NCBI GenBank assembly: GCA_028717245.1
Contig: JAQUOD010000001.1
Span: forward strand, 21,514-85,513
Direction of reading: 5' to 3'
Source of the DNA: Candidatus Omnitrophota bacterium
Lineage (GTDB): Bacteria > Omnitrophota > Gorgyraeia > Gygaellales > Profunditerraquicolaceae
DNA: 64,000 bases
The notes under the pieces are model-generated. The model did not search any database, was not told the DNA's origin, and worked only from the letters and a program-made list of their open reading frames with translations. Position 1 is the stretch's first letter. Each line of letters starts with the position of its first letter. The position numbers and the translations under genes are program-made. This document shows, piece after piece, positions 2,297 to 52,940 of the stretch.

Positions 2297-2373
2297 GCCC
2301 CTGTAGCTCATAAGGATAGAGCAGCAGTTTCCTAAACTGCGCGTGGCAGGTTCGATTCCTGCCAGGGGCACCA
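2297..2373 (+). tRNA. tRNA-Arg (anticodon CCT), CCA encoded
   Basis: Cloverleaf readable: acceptor GCCCCTG/CAGGGGC, anticodon stem GCAGT/ACTGC with loop TTCCTAA, T-arm GCAGGTTCGATTCCTGC, 3' ACCA. Confidence 0.8.
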
Positions 2374-12965: not shown

Positions 12966-13814
12966 TTAAAAACAAAACGTGAGCTTATTTGACAGGCCAG
13001 ATTGGCGGGCGTATTCAACGGTTTTTTCCTTGAGCTGGCGGGAATATTCGGCATATTTGGCAAGATTAAAATAAAACCTCCCTCCTAATCCCCTCTTTAG
13101 GCTATTTAGGACACCCCAACGTGGATTGAGCTTATCTACGTAGACTTGGCTTAAATTTAAGCCCTCTAGGGCCCTAAAAAGGCCTTCCAGATTGGCTCTG
13201 GTATCGCTAAATTCCGGGATTAGCGGCCCTAAAAATACCCAGGTTTTTATACCTTTACTCTGGGCTTTTTTGAGGGTATTTAGGCGCTCCCGGGTTTCTG
13301 AAGCATAAGGTTCTAAGGCTTTTTGTAGGCCTAGATTCAGTGTGGTCATGGTCATGCCTAAACTAGGGGTTTTATAGTTGCTTAAAATATCAAAATCGCG
13401 CTCAATCAAGCTGCTCTTAGTCAGGATAGAAACCTCAAAACCGGCTTCCAAAAGTAGCTTAAGGCATGCCCGGGAGAGTTTATATTTTGCCTCCAGCGGC
13501 TGCCAGCCATCACAGATAGAGCTCATAAACACCTCGATTTTATCCGGTGCTTTCCGAGGCGTCCTGAGCGTAGCGAAGGAAACCTCTTTCGGAGGCCTGA
13601 TTTTTCGTAGTTGTTTAGCCAAAACTTCGGGCGCGTTTACCTTAACATCCACAAAATCGCCCCAGTCTTCAGGCCTATCCTTGAACTTTTTCATATATCG
13701 GGCATAGCAATACAGGCATCTGTGGCTACAGCCTACGTAGCAGTTCAGGGTAAAATCGCTTAGGTTGGACTTATTCAGGAGGGTTTTGCAGGTAATTTCG
13801 CGGATTTTGAGCAT
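12966..13814 (-). CDS. Radical SAM domain protein (SplB/COG1533-like)
   Basis: Cys cluster CYVGCSHRCLYC near N-terminus; size ~280 aa. Confidence 0.55.
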   Translation of the reverse strand: MLKIREITCKTLLNKSNLSDFTLNCYVGCSHRCLYCYARYMKKFKDRPEDWGDFVDVKVNAPEVLAKQLRKIRPPKEVSFATLRTPRKAPDKIEVFMSSICDGWQPLEAKYKLSRACLKLLLEAGFEVSILTKSSLIERDFDILSNYKTPSLGMTMTTLNLGLQKALEPYASETRERLNTLKKAQSKGIKTWVFLGPLIPEFSDTRANLEGLFRALEGLNLSQVYVDKLNPRWGVLNSLKRGLGGRFYFNLAKYAEYSRQLKEKTVEYARQSGLSNKLTFCF

Positions 13815-13857
13815 AAAAAGAGAAACTTATGGAGACCTTTTACCTTAATAGTAAATA

Positions 13858-13900
13858 ATAAAAAGCCCGCACTCTCCTTAAGTACGGGCTTTGATTTTTC
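13858..13900. terminator. Bidirectional hairpin terminator
   Basis: AAAAGCCCGCACTC..GTACGGGCTTT flanked by A/T runs on both strands. Confidence 0.55.
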
Positions 13901-14020
13901 TTTTGCTGGCGCAAGGCAGGGACCGTAAAACCTAATTTCGCCAGCTAAATTAGGTGCTAAGCCCTCCTGCGTCTCAACTCTAACTAAAGTTTATCACAAA
14001 TAAAGCTCTTGTCAAGAAAT

Positions 14021-14707
14021 TTAAGTAACCGCTTTACGGAAACACGGAATTCTCCACGACTCGAGTTTACTTAAAAATTGATTATATCTATCAACCGAAA
14101 ATGCTGTTAAGAATCCTAGCGAGCCGTCTTTCCTCTTAATAATAATTACGAGGAAAAAGGTTCGATAATACGCCTCTGTTATATGTACTGGATATTCAAA
14201 GTGAGACACGTATAAATATTTTACGCTATTACGTTCCTGTTTTTCATAAATTTCTCTACTATTTTCAAGAGTATAATGAATCCAGGGAAGACGTTTTGCT
14301 CGTGGTTCAAGAAAATTATCTGGTTTCATCTCGTGGCCATCATATAAAAAATCCATCCCCAGCTCATCAATAGTTATTTCTTCACCTAAAGAATCTTTGA
14401 CCTTACCCATCACTTTTTTATCATAGTAATCGAGCGCTTCCTTTTCTTCAATCTTTCTTCCAAAATTTTCTAACAAGTTGCCCTGCGCTATTATTAAATT
14501 ATCTTTCTGGTGATGATAGTATATCAAATTTAGACATTGGGCTATTTCTTTATGTTTAAGCTGTAGTTTATTTCTATGCTTCTGCTTATAATAAAACATC
14601 TTTATCGCATCATAAAATACATCTAAGGTTACATCTCTATTGTAGGTAGAAAGTAACCGGCTATTCTCCATAATTCTTAGTAACTTTTTTTCTTTAAGAT
14701 TACTCAT
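14021..14707 (-). CDS. Hypothetical protein in AT-rich island (start at MSNLKEKK; weak HEPN-like RxxxxH)
   Basis: ORF in ~30% GC region; own promoter copy upstream; motif RLPWIH only suggestive. Confidence 0.5.
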   Translation of the reverse strand: MSNLKEKKLLRIMENSRLLSTYNRDVTLDVFYDAIKMFYYKQKHRNKLQLKHKEIAQCLNLIYYHHQKDNLIIAQGNLLENFGRKIEEKEALDYYDKKVMGKVKDSLGEEITIDELGMDFLYDGHEMKPDNFLEPRAKRLPWIHYTLENSREIYEKQERNSVKYLYVSHFEYPVHITEAYYRTFFLVIIIKRKDGSLGFLTAFSVDRYNQFLSKLESWRIPCFRKAVT

Positions 14708-14842
14708 GGGTTTTTGCCTTTTTACTATAATAGACGTAATAAATGGCAAAATCTAACAGAGATTTTTTAGATTTCTTCAGGGATAGTCATCGGGAATGAA
14801 AAATAGAGTCGGATTTATTTTTCAAAAATAATTCTGAACTTA

Positions 14843-15589
14843 TTAACCCATTAATTGTTTTTTACTAATCTTCTTTATTAGAAGAGGCCTCTCTTTTTTT
14901 ATTCTGATAATCTGGAGCTCCCCATACGTCCCGCTAGAACTCGTTGCTATCTGTGAATCGCCACCCGTAGAGCCTAAAGCTAATAAATCTCTAACCGCTG
15001 GCTCCATAGAATTATTCCGTTGCACAATAGACTTTAGTTTTGTAATGGGCTCATCAAAAGAATTGCGGATTTCAGAACATATATCTTTCAACCCATTATT
15101 ATATCTTATTATTTTCTCCCCAGCATTATTAATAAGCAATTCGTGGATGAAATGTACTATAACTTTGCAGCTTTCTAAGCGTGAATATAAATTTATTATT
15201 TTTATTGCAAGCTCTTTATCATAACCACAAGCAATGGTAAAATAATTTTCATAAGCTATTAATTGCGGTGGATTCCAAACCCAACTATATATAAATGTAT
15301 TTTTATCTATTTTCCCTTTATGACCACCTACAGCATAATCATGAATGAATTGGTGAACCCAATTCTTATTTTGTTCCAATTCATAAATCAGAGACTCAAC
15401 TCCAATAAGCCTTTTGTCTTCTTCTATTTTTCTTATTTGTTTTATTTGTTTTTGCGCAAGTTGCCACATTACTATGATTGTAATTAATCCAACAGCGATT
15501 CCAATTATCATAATAAGCGAGCCCATCCAAGGTTTTGTAAGTAATAGAACAAATTGTTTAGAGATTTCTACGGCCTGTGCCACATTCAT
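14843..15589 (-). CDS. Hypothetical membrane-anchored protein in AT-rich island
   Basis: N-terminal TM helix SLIMIIGIAVGLITIIVMW; no recognisable catalytic motif. Confidence 0.5.
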   Translation of the reverse strand: MNVAQAVEISKQFVLLLTKPWMGSLIMIIGIAVGLITIIVMWQLAQKQIKQIRKIEEDKRLIGVESLIYELEQNKNWVHQFIHDYAVGGHKGKIDKNTFIYSWVWNPPQLIAYENYFTIACGYDKELAIKIINLYSRLESCKVIVHFIHELLINNAGEKIIRYNNGLKDICSEIRNSFDEPITKLKSIVQRNNSMEPAVRDLLALGSTGGDSQIATSSSGTYGELQIIRIKKERPLLIKKISKKQLMG

Positions 15590-15775
15590 TTTATTGCACT
15601 CCTCCCCTACTCAAGAAAAAAGGCAACCCCCCTTCTATCTTGGAGAGTTGCCTTTAATTATTAGTTGCTTTTGGGTCCATTTTAGCCAAGTCTACGTTTA
15701 GGGACAGACACCTTGGTTTCTAATATACACCTTAGGGTCAGTCCCTTCATTATTCTACGCCTAATAGGAGCTTTG

Positions 15776-16522
15776 TCAATAGGGGCGGTTCTGCATAATA
15801 TAGAAGCCGTAGCCGTAGTAGGCGCAGTATTTCTTGTACATTTCTATTTCTAGCTCTAAGGGGTCAAAGATGGCCTGGGTAGCCGGGTCGCCTCTATATT
15901 TAATCTTCTTCTCGGCAAGCACCTTCTCTAGCGGGGTATAGTAACCCGTCCACCAGGATTCATCCGGCAAGGGGAAATAATCGATGAGCTTATATCCTGC
16001 CGAATCAATGAGCGGATAGATATCTTTGTAATATTTAATATTCGGATCTACTTTGGCGAAGAAGTCCCTTACTTCCTGCGGCGCGTCTTGTTTAAACCAG
16101 ACTAAATCACTTACCACTAAGTAGCCATTAGGCCGCAGGAATTTTTTCCAGTAGGCAAGCCCCTTGGCAAACCCCATGATAAAGACAGACCCCTCGGACC
16201 AGATTAAGTCAAAACTCGCCTCTTTAAAATCCATCGCGGCCATGTCGCCTACGACACATTTGATCCTGTCCGGATAGCCGGCTTGGCCAAGGTTGCGCTT
16301 AAGGGCTTCGATAAAGGGCGGATGGTTATCCAGGGCGGTAATGTTGCCGGAGGTTAACTTGGCCAGAACAAGAGTCTGTTTGCCCGCGCCGCAGCCTACA
16401 TCCAGGATTTCGGGGTGCTTAGGCAATTCGCTAAGCTTTTGAAAGGCCTTTTGAGTGGAGAGCTCATCACCCGGCCCCTGCCTGGGCAAGGCCTCAAATA
16501 TTTCGTAGAAAAGTTTGTCCAT
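15776..16522 (-). CDS. Class I SAM-dependent methyltransferase
   Basis: Motif I ILDVGCGAGKQT, motif post-I, typical fold length. Confidence 0.8.
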   Translation of the reverse strand: MDKLFYEIFEALPRQGPGDELSTQKAFQKLSELPKHPEILDVGCGAGKQTLVLAKLTSGNITALDNHPPFIEALKRNLGQAGYPDRIKCVVGDMAAMDFKEASFDLIWSEGSVFIMGFAKGLAYWKKFLRPNGYLVVSDLVWFKQDAPQEVRDFFAKVDPNIKYYKDIYPLIDSAGYKLIDYFPLPDESWWTGYYTPLEKVLAEKKIKYRGDPATQAIFDPLELEIEMYKKYCAYYGYGFYIMQNRPY

Positions 16523-16776: not shown

Positions 16777-17077
16777 TATTTCTCCTTTTTTGATAAATTT
16801 TCTTTACTTTCCGGCTAGGATAGATTGTTTTTAAAAATATGCCTTTGGTTTCAAATACAAACGGCACTGCCCAGGCATAGCCTTTATATTTATAAGCTAA
16901 AACCCATTGATTATTCCGGGATGGATGCTCATGGATGCCCAGAAATTTAGCGTGTATAATTTCTTCGAACGAAACTCCCCTTGTGCGCTTCACTCGTTTA
17001 CTTTTTTCCGGATTCCATGATATTGTATATACAATTGTATTACTTTCCTGCGGTTTGTCAAGTTCTTTTTTATTCAT
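16736..17077 (-). CDS. brnT: BrnT-family toxin (DUF497 ribonuclease)
   Basis: ISWNPEKSKRVKRTRGVSFEEI..VLAYKYKG matches DUF497/BrnT; overlaps brnA by 41 nt as typical. Confidence 0.75.
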   Translation of the reverse strand: MNKKELDKPQESNTIVYTISWNPEKSKRVKRTRGVSFEEIIHAKFLGIHEHPSRNNQWVLAYKYKGYAWAVPFVFETKGIFLKTIYPSRKVKKIYQKRRNNEENETNKTRAVD

Positions 17078-17423
17078 GTCCTCCCCCCTTCTACTTATAA
17101 TAGACGTAGAAAGGAGCGGAATCTAACAGGGACTTTTTAGGGGAGTAGGAAGATCGGGGTTGATTCTATCGCCTGTAATAAGCTAAGAATTGAGAAGTTC
17201 TCTCCCTTAAGGGGACTCGCCCAGAATACGCCCGGGTATCACGTTACCGAAAAAGGAGAGCTTTATTCCGATAAGTATAGCCACGCCGCCTCGGAGATAC
17301 CCTGAAACGTACCTTTATCAAAAACGCCTGACCGGCCAAAAAACAATTTTAACCCCTTAGGGCATAAAAATAGCGCTGATCCTACTTCGGAATCAGCGCT
17401 ATTTTTATCGTACCTCTCTTCTT

Positions 17424-19753: not shown

Positions 19754-19820
19754 TTTAATTCCTAATGTTAGGGACAGTCCCCTTGGTTTCTATCTAGTTC
19801 GATATATGCGGGGACAGTCC

Positions 19821-20573
19821 CTAGGGACTATACTCTTTCATGACCATGGAATAGCCCAGGGCGCCGCTGGTCTGGATTTTTAGGGGGATGCGGCGGCTAT
19901 CTGCGCTAATCCAGATATCGATTTGCCTGGGGGTACTGCTAAAATGATATGCCTTAAAAGTGCCGGCAGGGACAGTTAGCTCTTCTTCGGAAACCAACTC
20001 TATTTCTAACCTCCGGGTAGGCAGGTTAGCAATAATTACTCTTCCCACATCCAAATTAGGGGTATGGCGTACATAATACGGCAGGAGCGCGGCATTATGG
20101 ATAAGGTCGTCTTTTTTGATAATGAGCCGCTCCTGTTTTTTCATCCCTTTCTTCTTAATGATAGTAACCGTAAAGTTAGTTTGGTCATAGTGCTCGTTAA
20201 TTTTTTCATGCGTAAATATGTTCATGATATCCCGCTCTACCTTTACCGGTAAGAGAGTTTGCGGGTCGCTATAAATTCTTTCCGTATCGCTAAAGTGGGT
20301 TAATTTAGTTTCCATGACCATGAGGTTTAAAATTCTGCCTTCTAAGGGGGCATTGCCGATATTGGAAAAACGCATCCGGCCTAAACGCACCTTGCCCAGC
20401 ATGACATCATAGGTAATTTTTTCCCCGCTATATTTAGATTGTCCGATACGACGATTACCTGCGGATTTATCTTTGGCTTTTAGGGAGAGGATAGAACTAA
20501 AGGCCCCCAGGAGAAAAGCAGTAAAAAGGCATAAAAGCAGGGTATTTAAAAATTTCTTACGGGTTCTTTTCAA
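19821..20573 (-). CDS. Exported hypothetical protein (DUF3108-like)
   Basis: N-terminal signal/TM segment; size and composition only. Confidence 0.4.
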   Translation of the reverse strand: MKRTRKKFLNTLLLCLFTAFLLGAFSSILSLKAKDKSAGNRRIGQSKYSGEKITYDVMLGKVRLGRMRFSNIGNAPLEGRILNLMVMETKLTHFSDTERIYSDPQTLLPVKVERDIMNIFTHEKINEHYDQTNFTVTIIKKKGMKKQERLIIKKDDLIHNAALLPYYVRHTPNLDVGRVIIANLPTRRLEIELVSEEELTVPAGTFKAYHFSSTPRQIDIWISADSRRIPLKIQTSGALGYSMVMKEYSP

Positions 20574-32431: not shown

Positions 32432-32502
32432 AGCGGGCGAAGGGAATTGAACCCTCCTATCCAGCTTGGGAAGCTGGTGTTCTACCGATGAACTACGCCC
32501 GC
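32432..32502 (-). tRNA. tRNA-Gly (anticodon CCC), no encoded CCA, discriminator U
   Basis: Reverse complement gives GCGGGCG acceptor, D-arm GTTCATCGGTAGAAC, anticodon loop TTCCCAA, T-arm GAGGGTTCAATTCCCTT. Confidence 0.8.
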
Positions 32503-51684: not shown

Positions 51685-52559
51685 GGATAAAACCTCTCGT
51701 GAAGTTCCCTAAGCCCCTCTGTTATGCGCGGGCCCGGGCGCAACAATAAATCAGAATTAATGTCGTTATATATCCTATTATTTCTAACTGCCATTATATT
51801 CCCCCAGCTAAAACGCTTACTCAATGATATTCGCGAGCCTTCTTCGCCCATATAAGCCAAAATGATACATTCAGGGTTACGTTTAATCACCTCTTCCGGG
51901 CTAAATATACTGTATGCCCTTTTTGTATCCTTTGCTATGTTTATCCCTCCTGCCTTGGTAATCAACTCATCAACAAAAGAACCATCTCCCGCGGTAGTCA
52001 GCGGGTCATGCCATATCTCAATAAATACCCTTGGCTTTTTATTTGCGGGTATTGCTGTGACCTTTAAATTTATCTCTTTAATCTCATCCTGCATAGCTTT
52101 GATTAATGCCTTTGCTTCTTTTGGCTTGCCGGTAATCCTGCCTATCTCCATAATAGAGCTAAAGAGCCCGTCCGTGTTCTGCGGGTCAGACACATAGACA
52201 TTTAAATTTAGGCGCCTCAACTCAATGACTACAGATGCCTGCTCAAGCCCCGTACAAAAAATATAGTCAGGCTTTAAAGAAATGATTTTCTCTATATTGG
52301 GATAACTGAATGTGCCGACTTTTTCCTTGCCTTTTGTTTTTGGGGGATAATTACAGTATAAGCTTACCCCTACGATTTCTTCATCTAACCCTAAGGAGAA
52401 TAAGATTTCAGTAGTTGAAGGGGCCAGCGAAATATACCGGGCGGTCTTTTTAGGGACTGTCCCCGCCATGGCTATTTCTGTAAATCCCAAGGGGACTGTC
52501 CCTGATAATAAGCTAATTATTAATAATAGTTTCTTCATATAACAAAAAACCCGCCACAA
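51681..52559 (-). CDS. Periplasmic substrate-binding protein, BtuF-like (cobalamin); start uncertain because paired palindromic repeat overlaps the 5' end
   Basis: RYISLAPSTTEILFSLGL..and class III PBP pattern. Confidence 0.75.
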   Translation of the reverse strand: MWRVFCYMKKLLLIISLLSGTVPLGFTEIAMAGTVPKKTARYISLAPSTTEILFSLGLDEEIVGVSLYCNYPPKTKGKEKVGTFSYPNIEKIISLKPDYIFCTGLEQASVVIELRRLNLNVYVSDPQNTDGLFSSIMEIGRITGKPKEAKALIKAMQDEIKEINLKVTAIPANKKPRVFIEIWHDPLTTAGDGSFVDELITKAGGINIAKDTKRAYSIFSPEEVIKRNPECIILAYMGEEGSRISLSKRFSWGNIMAVRNNRIYNDINSDLLLRPGPRITEGLRELHERFYP

Positions 52560-52562
52560 AAT

Positions 52563-52798
52563 TCGGCGGGTTGCACCCTGCTTTCCTACTTGACCCTTAT
52601 CCGCGAGGTTCTTCTACGCCCTTTAAAAGGCCGGGTTTCGAAGCAACTATTATATAGGTAAGGTCTTCTGACTTAAGGATTGGCCTACTTGCTCTACCTT
52701 CCCGGCTTTTAAGCCAGTGGTATTTTAGAGTTTTCGTACCCTTATACAGCAGCGGGACTGTGGCCGCTTTTACGGCCTTCCCTCACCCATACAACTAT
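52563..52798 (-). ncRNA. Cobalamin riboswitch with intrinsic-terminator expression platform
   Basis: Minus-strand read: GGGTGAGGGAAGGCCGTAAAAGCGGCCACAGTCCCGCTGCTGTA, ACCACTGGC (B12-box-like), CCGGGAAGG, then AACCCGCCGAATTTTGTGGCGGGTTTTTTGTT terminator just before btuF-like start. Confidence 0.7.
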
Positions 52799-52940
52799 CT
52801 AATTTGTAAAAAGAACTCTTACTAATTTTCTATCTAGGGCTATATTAATGCAAATTTATTTTTATGTCAAGAGAAAGTTTCATTAATGAAACTTTCTCTT
52901 GATTCTTAAGGCAATGTGCCGAAGAATCTAATATAATTCT

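Follow-up and report, generated by a model that had tools for sequence, protein, structure and literature searches.

A 64,000 nt stretch of the genome of a Candidatus Omnitrophota bacterium (GenBank assembly GCA_028717245.1, contig JAQUOD010000001.1, positions 21,514 to 85,513), called the window here, was analyzed for the content of an AT-rich segment at positions 14021 to 15589. Two genes, A and B, are encoded in this segment and a small RNA gene lies directly downstream of gene B. B and the RNA are inherited together over large evolutionary distances and move as one cassette of about 0.93 kb. Protein B is a predicted ribonuclease (RNase) and the RNA may keep it in check. The pair is best called a protein-RNA toxin-antitoxin-like module with another toxin fold and another RNA layout, outside any defined type III family. 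The AT-rich segment is two independent accessory cassettes, B with its RNA and gene A, and not one operon. The coordinates of the features are listed in Table 1. Fetched loci are cited by number (L001 and so on).

When the DNA downstream of B was aligned across loci a non-coding element proved to be the most conserved part of the cassette. Its core of about 80 nt, which begins UAGAGUUGAGACGCAGGAGGGCUUAGC, was invariant or nearly so where B was only 53-93% identical. An earlier note on this DNA, made from the sequence alone, had described a hairpin terminator here as one of the boundaries of the segment. The hairpin and its T-run are real, but the boundary role was not upheld since the hairpin is the terminator of a conserved small-RNA gene. 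The promoter of this gene gave 10 of 12 matches in the promoter scan and has an extended -10 element. Every RNA locus, the distant ones included, had CTTGAC(A) and a -10 element in the same position, with a spacer that varied. Terminator and promoter position were conserved in every locus.

The structure of the RNA was tested on an alignment of 16 sequences (A6) with 500 shuffles and slid controls. The 23 proposed pairs were paired in all 368 of 368 cells. Changes on both sides were seen in eight pairs, seven of the nine in the P2 hairpin and one in the pseudoknot. None of the 500 shuffles and no slid control reached the observed pairing values. All 16 sequences preserved the pseudoknot pairing, in which CG pairs had changed to UA and to GU. 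P1 was invariant in the 16-sequence set and covaried in the subtype formed by L016, L019, and L020. The RNA of L018 kept P1, P2, and the pseudoknot with a different sequence (CCAGUG/CACUGG compared to GCUGGCG/CGCCAGC in the window). The least conserved part of the core was the J1/3 linker. The minimum free energy of the RNA had a z of -4.6. The small RNA is a covariation-supported unit with an H-type pseudoknot and its own promoter, and is predicted to be a discrete transcript. The pseudoknot and the near-invariant single-stranded bases suggest specific recognition by a protein. A peptide gene was considered for this region and rejected: one frame was open in 16/16 sequences but had no in-frame start after the upstream stop, and the substitutions compensated pairing and were not synonymous.

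Covariance models of Rfam 15 gave only terminator-driven sub-threshold matches at E ≤ 1 in positions 13700-14900 of the window. No relevant Rfam match was found at E ≤ 10 in seven loci with RNA variants, with drum, skipping-rope, DUF3800-I to XI, abiF, signal recognition particle (SRP) RNA, and 6S RNA among the models searched. That the RNA represents a new structured RNA class absent from Rfam is well supported. It is single-copy, as the only tandem array in positions 13500-16000 was a 9-nt AT-rich repeat inside gene A.

The loci were scanned on the basis of alignment A1 and the RNA was searched for with two covariance models (R1 and R2) and by inspection. The genetic linkage of B and the RNA extends across phyla, the loci coming from Omnitrophota, Terriglobia, a deltaproteobacterial metagenome-assembled genome (MAG), and UBP2. 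The RNA was found beside B homologues of 28-48% identity to the window protein and each copy had its own CTTGAC(A) promoter and terminator. It was detected by R2 in L037 (B 48% identical, E 5e-17) and L016 (28%, E 0.04), and by R1 in L033/L034 (38%, E 4e-4), where B is fused to a PilZ domain, and L018 (32%, E 0.002). In L019, L020, and L039/L040, with B about 30% identical, the conserved GCUGGUG ... CACCAGC pairing and the flanking helices were present. The RNA was upstream of B in L038. In L014 (6024-6069) the stop codon of a B homologue from Eisenbacteria was immediately followed by a GCUGGUG ... CACCAGC element, which fitted better on the opposite strand; the partner RNA of this locus may be antisense. 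When 241 million metagenome records were scanned for the exact core, only 12 matches came up, each of them at a contig end or immediately downstream of B or of what remains of it.

Decay of the cassette was also observed. The RNA and its promoter were intact where B was truncated (L013), reduced to its last 20 codons (L025), or absent (L027). B was broken and the RNA missing in L015. The place of B was taken by a HigB/Gp49-like protein of 123 amino acids and a helix-turn-helix (HTH-XRE) protein of 90 amino acids in L025 (1-250) and L027 (150-890). In L035/L036 (1884-3760) a 332-amino acid protein without a family match was encoded 118 nt upstream of the B homologue.

Protein B was 100% identical to an NCBI "hypothetical protein" (P0001) of a Candidatus Omnitrophica MAG. 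The mechanical open reading frame (ORF) of B, counted from a TTG, extends to 14749. Fifteen close relatives were found among 5.8 billion protein clusters and a profile search of 1.8 billion representatives gave a family of 105 members, 62 of which were full length and were aligned (A3). The consensus of these 62 matched Pfam PBECR2 (PF18810; phage-Barnase-EndoU-ColicinE5/D-RelE-like nuclease 2 of phage polyvalent proteins, PMC5512222) with 29.2 bits and an E of 1.2e-6, above the gathering score of 27.1, and the match spanned profile positions 17-117 of 120. Individually, 8/62 members matched PBECR2 at E < 0.01 (best 26.1 bits). By this family-level match B belongs to a predicted RNase family. 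The PADLOC model PDC-M04B was matched by B of the window (E 1.6e-4, 19.6 bits) and by 32/62 family members (best E 8e-10). No PDC-M04A partner was found among gene A, the methyltransferase, and the radical-SAM neighbor, nor among eight neighbors of B homologues.

An AlphaFold2 model of B built from the 62-sequence alignment had a predicted local distance difference test (pLDDT) score of 95 and a predicted template modeling (pTM) score of 0.90. It replaced a run with the 15 close homologues only, which reached a pLDDT of 57. The model has a helical N-terminal half, a helix at residues 140-149, and four antiparallel strands at 152-158, 161-173, 180-191, and 197-205. As modeled, the helix and the four strands are the core of the Barnase-EndoU-ColicinE5/D-RelE (BECR) fold. 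In a Foldseek search of the PDB the highest probability, 0.94 but with an E of 0.03, was obtained for the BECR tRNase CdiA-CT Kp342 (6cp9). No PDB Foldseek match was found at E ≤ 0.001 and a profile search of PDB sequences was empty. Against a viral structure library B aligned over its whole length with parts of phage polyvalent proteins, one of them annotated LPD3 (best E of the search 3e-5).

Five residues were conserved throughout the 62-member alignment: H125 (61), R136 (62), R139 (58), Y166 (61), and T201 (60 Thr and 2 Ser). D105 and Y122 were near-invariant too. T201 lies within the last strand of the model. PBECR RNases carry a His and a Ser/Thr in strand 4 (Iyer et al. 2017, PMC5512222), and the active site of CdiA-CT Kp342 is made up of K, Y, H, R, and T (PMC9086364). 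The conservation of H125 and T201 fits the PBECR pattern. B is predicted to be a cytoplasmic, metal-independent endoribonuclease with an intact predicted active site of H125, R136, R139, Y166, and T201, in keeping with the suggestion in the earlier note that this segment could encode a toxin or defense-type protein. The HEPN-like motif RLPWIH, which the same note had proposed for B, fails because H144 is a His in only 3/62 members and mostly an Arg or Lys in the others, while R139 is conserved. No HEPN family match was obtained for B or for members of its family. RLPWIH is the start of the N-terminal helix of the PBECR2/BECR domain.

An N-terminal PilZ domain, a receptor of cyclic diguanylate (c-di-GMP), was present in five of the 62 B-family members (examples are L033/L034 3001-3984 and P0027, P0063, and P0066). 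In other relatives a separate PilZ gene overlapped the start of B (L018 5663-6001). The partner RNA was still present with both kinds.

The B-RNA pair may be a type III-like toxin/RNA-antitoxin or abortive-infection module, a reading to which we give close to an even chance. The binding, toxicity, neutralization, and trigger in this scheme are inferred. The RNA would be made in excess from its own promoter, as expected because that promoter is strong and separate, and would bind and neutralize the RNase. If the RNA was degraded or ran short, as might happen when a phage shuts off transcription or the locus is lost, B would be set free to cleave cellular RNA and growth would stop. The asymmetric decay of the cassette, with B lost and the RNA kept, fits an antitoxin. 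As a low-GC cassette in variable neighborhoods beside toxin-antitoxin, restriction-modification, and abortive infection (Abi) genes it resembles a toxin-antitoxin module, and the matches of the B family to PADLOC candidate models count for this reading. There is precedent in the abiF motif and RCd22, which neutralize AbiF by direct binding (bioRxiv 10.1101/2025.04.15.648962).

A number of observations weigh against a toxin held by an RNA antitoxin. Protein B of the window alone reached no Pfam threshold and had no PBECR2 match at E ≤ 1. Its PDB fold matches are statistically weak, with an E of 0.03, template modeling scores of 0.25-0.46, and 15-19% identity. H125 is placed about 15 residues before the N-terminal helix and not inside it. 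The B relatives that carry or adjoin PilZ are as compatible with an RNase that has a regulated role in physiology as with a toxin. In L035/L036 the B homologue (P0026) is 37% identical and has all conserved residues, yet a terminator follows right after its stop and the RNA was not found within 3 kb, so that an RNA antitoxin is not obligatory, or lies elsewhere, or has been replaced in that lineage. The RNA kept after loss of B would also fit an RNA with a function of its own. The architecture is unlike that of every known type III system in its single-copy RNA, the place of the RNA downstream of the toxin gene, and the toxin fold. Among the defining features of ToxIN, CptIN, and TenpIN only the pseudoknot is seen in the B-RNA module.

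The same linkage and structure evidence would be expected of a non-toxic ribonucleoprotein or enzyme-substrate pair, in which B processes or turns over a small RNA that acts elsewhere, or the RNA serves B as a cofactor or specificity subunit. Such a pair would be tuned by c-di-GMP in some lineages, and the PilZ domains fused or adjacent to B relatives, the RNA persisting without B in L025 and L027, the B without RNA in L035/L036, and an RNA core more conserved than protein B all favor it. Similar terminator-ended motifs (DUF3800-I, drum, and skipping-rope) were proposed to have an unknown "sophisticated" function (PMC5737381). The patchy distribution of the cassette speaks against it, as do its low GC and its place in variable regions beside the kinds of genes named above. 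So do the pseudogenized copies of B in several genomes, the matches of its homologues to PADLOC defense-candidate models, and its closest structural relatives, which are toxins. On balance a non-toxic pair is unlikely, though it deserves real weight. The RNA might alternatively act in cis, either as a 3′ untranslated region that stabilizes the B mRNA or serves as its autoregulatory site, or as a riboswitch-like attenuator for the downstream gene. B has no terminator of its own so its transcripts must run through the RNA element to the shared terminator, and a compact pseudoknot with conserved single-stranded bases is riboswitch-like. The element nevertheless has its own conserved promoter in every locus, each locus has different genes downstream, in some cases on the opposite strand, an A-rich linker parts the terminator stem from the core with no evident antiterminator, and in L038 the RNA is upstream of B. 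A cis-regulatory role is for these reasons improbable.

The extreme conservation of the core and the retention of the RNA where B was lost are what a housekeeping RNA of these bacteria would show, with B merely tending to adjoin it. Against this, no Rfam family was matched, including SRP RNA, 6S RNA, transfer-messenger RNA, and RNase P, the RNA moves with B between unrelated flanks, it is found beside B homologues in different phyla with its sequence co-diverging, and the small number of matches in the metagenome scan is not that of a housekeeping gene. This explanation is very improbable. Least credible of all is an antisense (type I-like) regulator pairing with the B mRNA. UGCCUU in the J1/3 linker is complementary to AAGGCA in the ribosome-binding region of B in the window, but conservation within the core is lowest in this linker. 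RNAduplex energies of the RNA against the translation-initiation region and the whole mRNA of B were no better than those of shuffled RNA in seven loci (z -0.3 to +2.0). The lack of antisense complementarity counts for a protein-binding RNA.

The B-RNA module was compared to known systems. B shares with PBECR2 domains the helix and four-strand topology, the conserved His, the conserved Thr in the last strand, and whole-length structural matches to segments of phage polyvalent proteins. It differs in being a solo chromosomal gene of uncultured bacteria, not a domain of a large virion-packaged protein, and in having its own N-terminal helical domain. Relatives of B were absent from IMG/VR, the INPHARED phages, and the PLSDB plasmids, and the loci were chromosomal MAG contigs. 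B is also tied to a dedicated small RNA, which is undescribed for PBECR domains. The best-probability fold match, CdiA-CT Kp342, and the other BECR toxins (BrnT, colicin D/E5, and RelE) are similar to B in fold and in the Tyr, His, Arg, and Thr residue types. These toxins are neutralized by protein immunity or antitoxin partners, none of which was found with B, and the fold match is weak.

With the type III systems (ToxIN, CptIN, and TenpIN) and AbiF/RCd22 the module has in common an endoribonuclease gene, predicted in the case of B, that is tightly linked to a pseudoknot RNA with predicted excess, a patchy distribution, and accessory contexts. AbiF/RCd22 sets the precedent here, as its gene-associated RNA motif was found by bioinformatics and works as an antitoxin that binds the protein. 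The fold of B is BECR and not that of ToxN/AbiQ or Abi_2, and no match of B to ToxN, AbiQ, or related families was found in Pfam, NCBIfam, or PADLOC. Known type III antitoxins are tandem repeats upstream of the toxin with a terminator between, compared to a single RNA copy here that has its own promoter and usually follows B. The B component of PADLOC PDC-M04 is matched by half of the B family, and weakly by the window protein, but PDC-M04A was beside B neither in the window nor in the other fetched loci. A DUF3800 protein beside an A-family gene on another contig gave the sole PDC-M04A match, a weak one. The RNA is like DUF3800-I, drum, and skipping-rope (Weinberg et al. 2017, PMC5737381) in being conserved, structured, ended by an intrinsic terminator, not in a 5′ untranslated region, and tied to one protein family on either side, possibly in either orientation. 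It has no sequence or structure match to them even at E ≤ 10, and its partner is a PBECR2-like RNase and not DUF3800.

The pair could found a new class, one of BECR RNases that work under the control of, or together with, a single small RNA with a pseudoknot; we regard this as possible but somewhat short of an even chance. The same tentative standing is given to the view that it adds a fourth kind to the RNA-antitoxin systems, with an architecture unrelated to those of ToxIN, CptIN, TenpIN, and AbiF. If true, RNA-antitoxin systems would extend to a new toxin fold and RNA architecture in little-known phyla, namely Omnitrophota and relatives, Acidobacteriota, and candidate phyla. Through the PilZ-fused relatives, control of such an RNase by c-di-GMP would be added. 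The B-RNA pair may also give a first functional handle on the DUF3800-I, drum, and skipping-rope motifs and could, by analogy, clarify other orphan gene-associated RNAs. A 228-amino acid protein and an RNA of about 125 nt make a tractable two-part system that could clarify how solo PBECR RNases are restrained. For annotation the lesson is that a "terminator hairpin" beside a hypothetical gene can hide a functional partner.

Table 1. Features of the AT-rich segment and its edges (window coordinates).
Feature	Position	Strand	Description
Gene B	14021..14707	-	228 amino acids from ATG; N-terminal helical domain, residues ~1-100; PBECR2-type BECR-fold domain, residues ~100-225
B promoter	14726..14759	-	TTAGAT 14756-14751, 18-nt spacer, TATTAT 14732-14727; conserved TACGTC block in spacer
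B + RNA cassette	13857..14788	-	B promoter, B, RNA promoter, RNA, terminator; ~0.93 kb
Small structured RNA gene	13852..13983	-	~125 nt, predicted transcript
RNA promoter	13988..14015	-	TTGACA 14015-14010, 16-nt spacer with TG, TAAACT 13993-13988; 5 nt past the B stop
RNA P1	13970-13963 with 13922-13916	-	Alignment columns 14-21 with 62-68
RNA P2 hairpin	13955-13947 with 13938-13930	-	Alignment columns 29-37 with 46-54
RNA pseudoknot	13945-13939 (P2 loop) with 13911-13905	-	Alignment columns 39-45 with 73-79
RNA terminator	13892-13862 (stem) and T-run	-	Intrinsic; after A-rich linker
Degenerate GGGACNNTCCC half-palindrome	14780..14791	-	At the upstream end of the B cassette; aligned to L010 (GGGACTGTCCCTGAAGAAATCT) and L011 (GGGACTATCCCTG)
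Gene A	14843..15589	-	248 amino acids; one N-terminal transmembrane helix, then conserved helical domain; orphan family
Terminator-like hairpin	15612..15658	-	GGCAACUCUCC ... GGGGGGUUGCC then U-run; inverted repeat; directly upstream of the ribosome-binding site of A
Degenerate GGGGACWGTCCCC palindrome pair	15698..15746	.	Doublet like a repetitive extragenic palindrome (REP); upstream of A

The segment at 14021-15589 had a GC content of 0.326 compared to 0.432 for the whole window. Sliding windows of the same length had a mean of 0.431 and a standard deviation of 0.022, giving the segment a z of -4.7, and the window-wide minimum started at 14001. Both ORFs of the segment are on the minus strand. 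The low GC, the two ORFs of 248 (membrane-anchored) and 228 amino acids, and the lack of a direct family match described in the earlier note were all borne out. Nothing of note was found for protein A or protein B in Pfam, NCBIfam, and PHROG, and B had only its weak match to PADLOC PDC-M04B. The description as compositionally distinct accessory DNA also held, as low GC goes with each gene separately: compared to the flanks, GC was lower in the B cassette in 11/13 loci and in gene A in 3/3. The proposed methyltransferase and toxin-antitoxin neighborhood was confirmed for the S-adenosylmethionine (SAM) methyltransferase and the CopG-type BrnA, while the BrnT match was weak (15.6 bits compared to a cutoff of 34.5). 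The SAM methyltransferase beside A (15776-16522) matched PADLOC mad2 (mads_2) over its methyltransferase domain with an E of 2e-20.

In blastn alignments of the cassette to L001, L002, L010, and L011 the nucleotide identity was 82-91%; the similarity ended sharply and the flanks were unrelated. The B promoter was conserved upstream of B in these four loci, all of which are without gene A. The promoter region upstream of B does carry the copy of the brnT promoter that had been reported: CTGTTAGATT-N11-TACGTCTATTATA is exact at 14726-14759 and at 17096-17129 upstream of brnT, with 0 expected by chance. A 71-nt block of the minus strand with the B promoter and 5′ leader (14700-14770) was 70% identical to the region upstream of brnT (17070-17140). 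The duplicated block suggests that the RNase cassette and the BrnTA operon share an operator or that a promoter was captured between them. The cassette lies beside BrnTA and a methyltransferase here, and beside Mrr, ORF6N, AbiEi/AbiEii, type I restriction-modification genes, and transposases elsewhere.

The earlier note had combined A and B in one horizontally acquired defense or toxin module, which would be an operon with A as a membrane sensor or effector and B as a HEPN-like partner. The genes are adjacent, co-oriented, and AT-rich in the window with no terminator called between them, and elsewhere relatives of A adjoin effector-like genes (a trypsin-like protease and DUF3800). No A homologue was present in any fetched B locus except the window itself, and B was in none of the four A loci (L006-L009). 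The similarity blocks of B (13857-14768/14788) and A (15027-15589) are separate. A and B are independent because they do not co-occur in the fetched loci outside the window and DNA conservation ends between them. The B promoter is moreover kept where A is absent and the supposed HEPN His is not conserved. A joint operon is already contradicted by these comparative data and is given very little credence. The best explanation is that A is not the partner of B and that chance insertion into one variable region brought the two together.

Protein A has a hydrophobic segment at about residues 21-44. Only 8-9 relatives were found among 5.8 billion protein clusters and a profile search added one protein. 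No match was found in Pfam, NCBIfam, PADLOC, or PDB sequences, where the profile gave transmembrane-driven noise only. The helical domain holds the motifs ELEQNKNWV, WNPPQ, and LYSRLESC. The neighbors of A vary, with none in L006, a trypsin-like protease in L008, and a DUF3800 protein in L009. The protease (L008 2191-2910) matched PADLOC LmuA and RT-protease, and the DUF3800 protein (L009 1154-1981) had the faint PDC-M04A match (E 0.008). The recurrent place of A beside effector-like genes, which are the PBECR2 RNase in the window, the trypsin-like protease, and the DUF3800 protein, is a weak hint of a conflict-system role from four contexts only. The terminator-like hairpin upstream of A was missed by the terminator pattern scan, its loop being longer than 8 nt, and it may be a regulatory leader. 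A near-consensus promoter (15779-15752) and the palindrome doublet lie upstream of this hairpin.

Rfam models at the gathering score identified a cobalamin riboswitch (52640-52805, minus strand) and tRNAs at 2297-2370 (plus strand) and 32432-32502 (minus strand), and nothing else in the whole window. The palindrome pair that had been placed at 15698-15746 is present but degenerate, with only 15735-15745 within one mismatch of GGGACWGTCCC. Perfect doublets lie elsewhere in the window, at 2379/2419, 19771/19811, and 52453/52492. These GGGGACWGTCCCC doublets (2379-2429, 19771-19821, and 52453-52502) have their halves about 40 nt apart and are similar to REP and REPIN elements, and one is directly after a tRNA. 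The same palindrome motif (GGGACNNTCCCTGAAGA) flanked the B-RNA cassette in L010, L011, L025, and L027. A Y1_Tnp gene, similar to those of REP-associated tyrosine transposases (RAYT), was present at L002 12778-13461. The doublets may mark recombination sites where cassettes land. In another case beside stable-RNA genes, a 5S rRNA gene (L004 6-122) was directly upstream of the B-RNA cassette.

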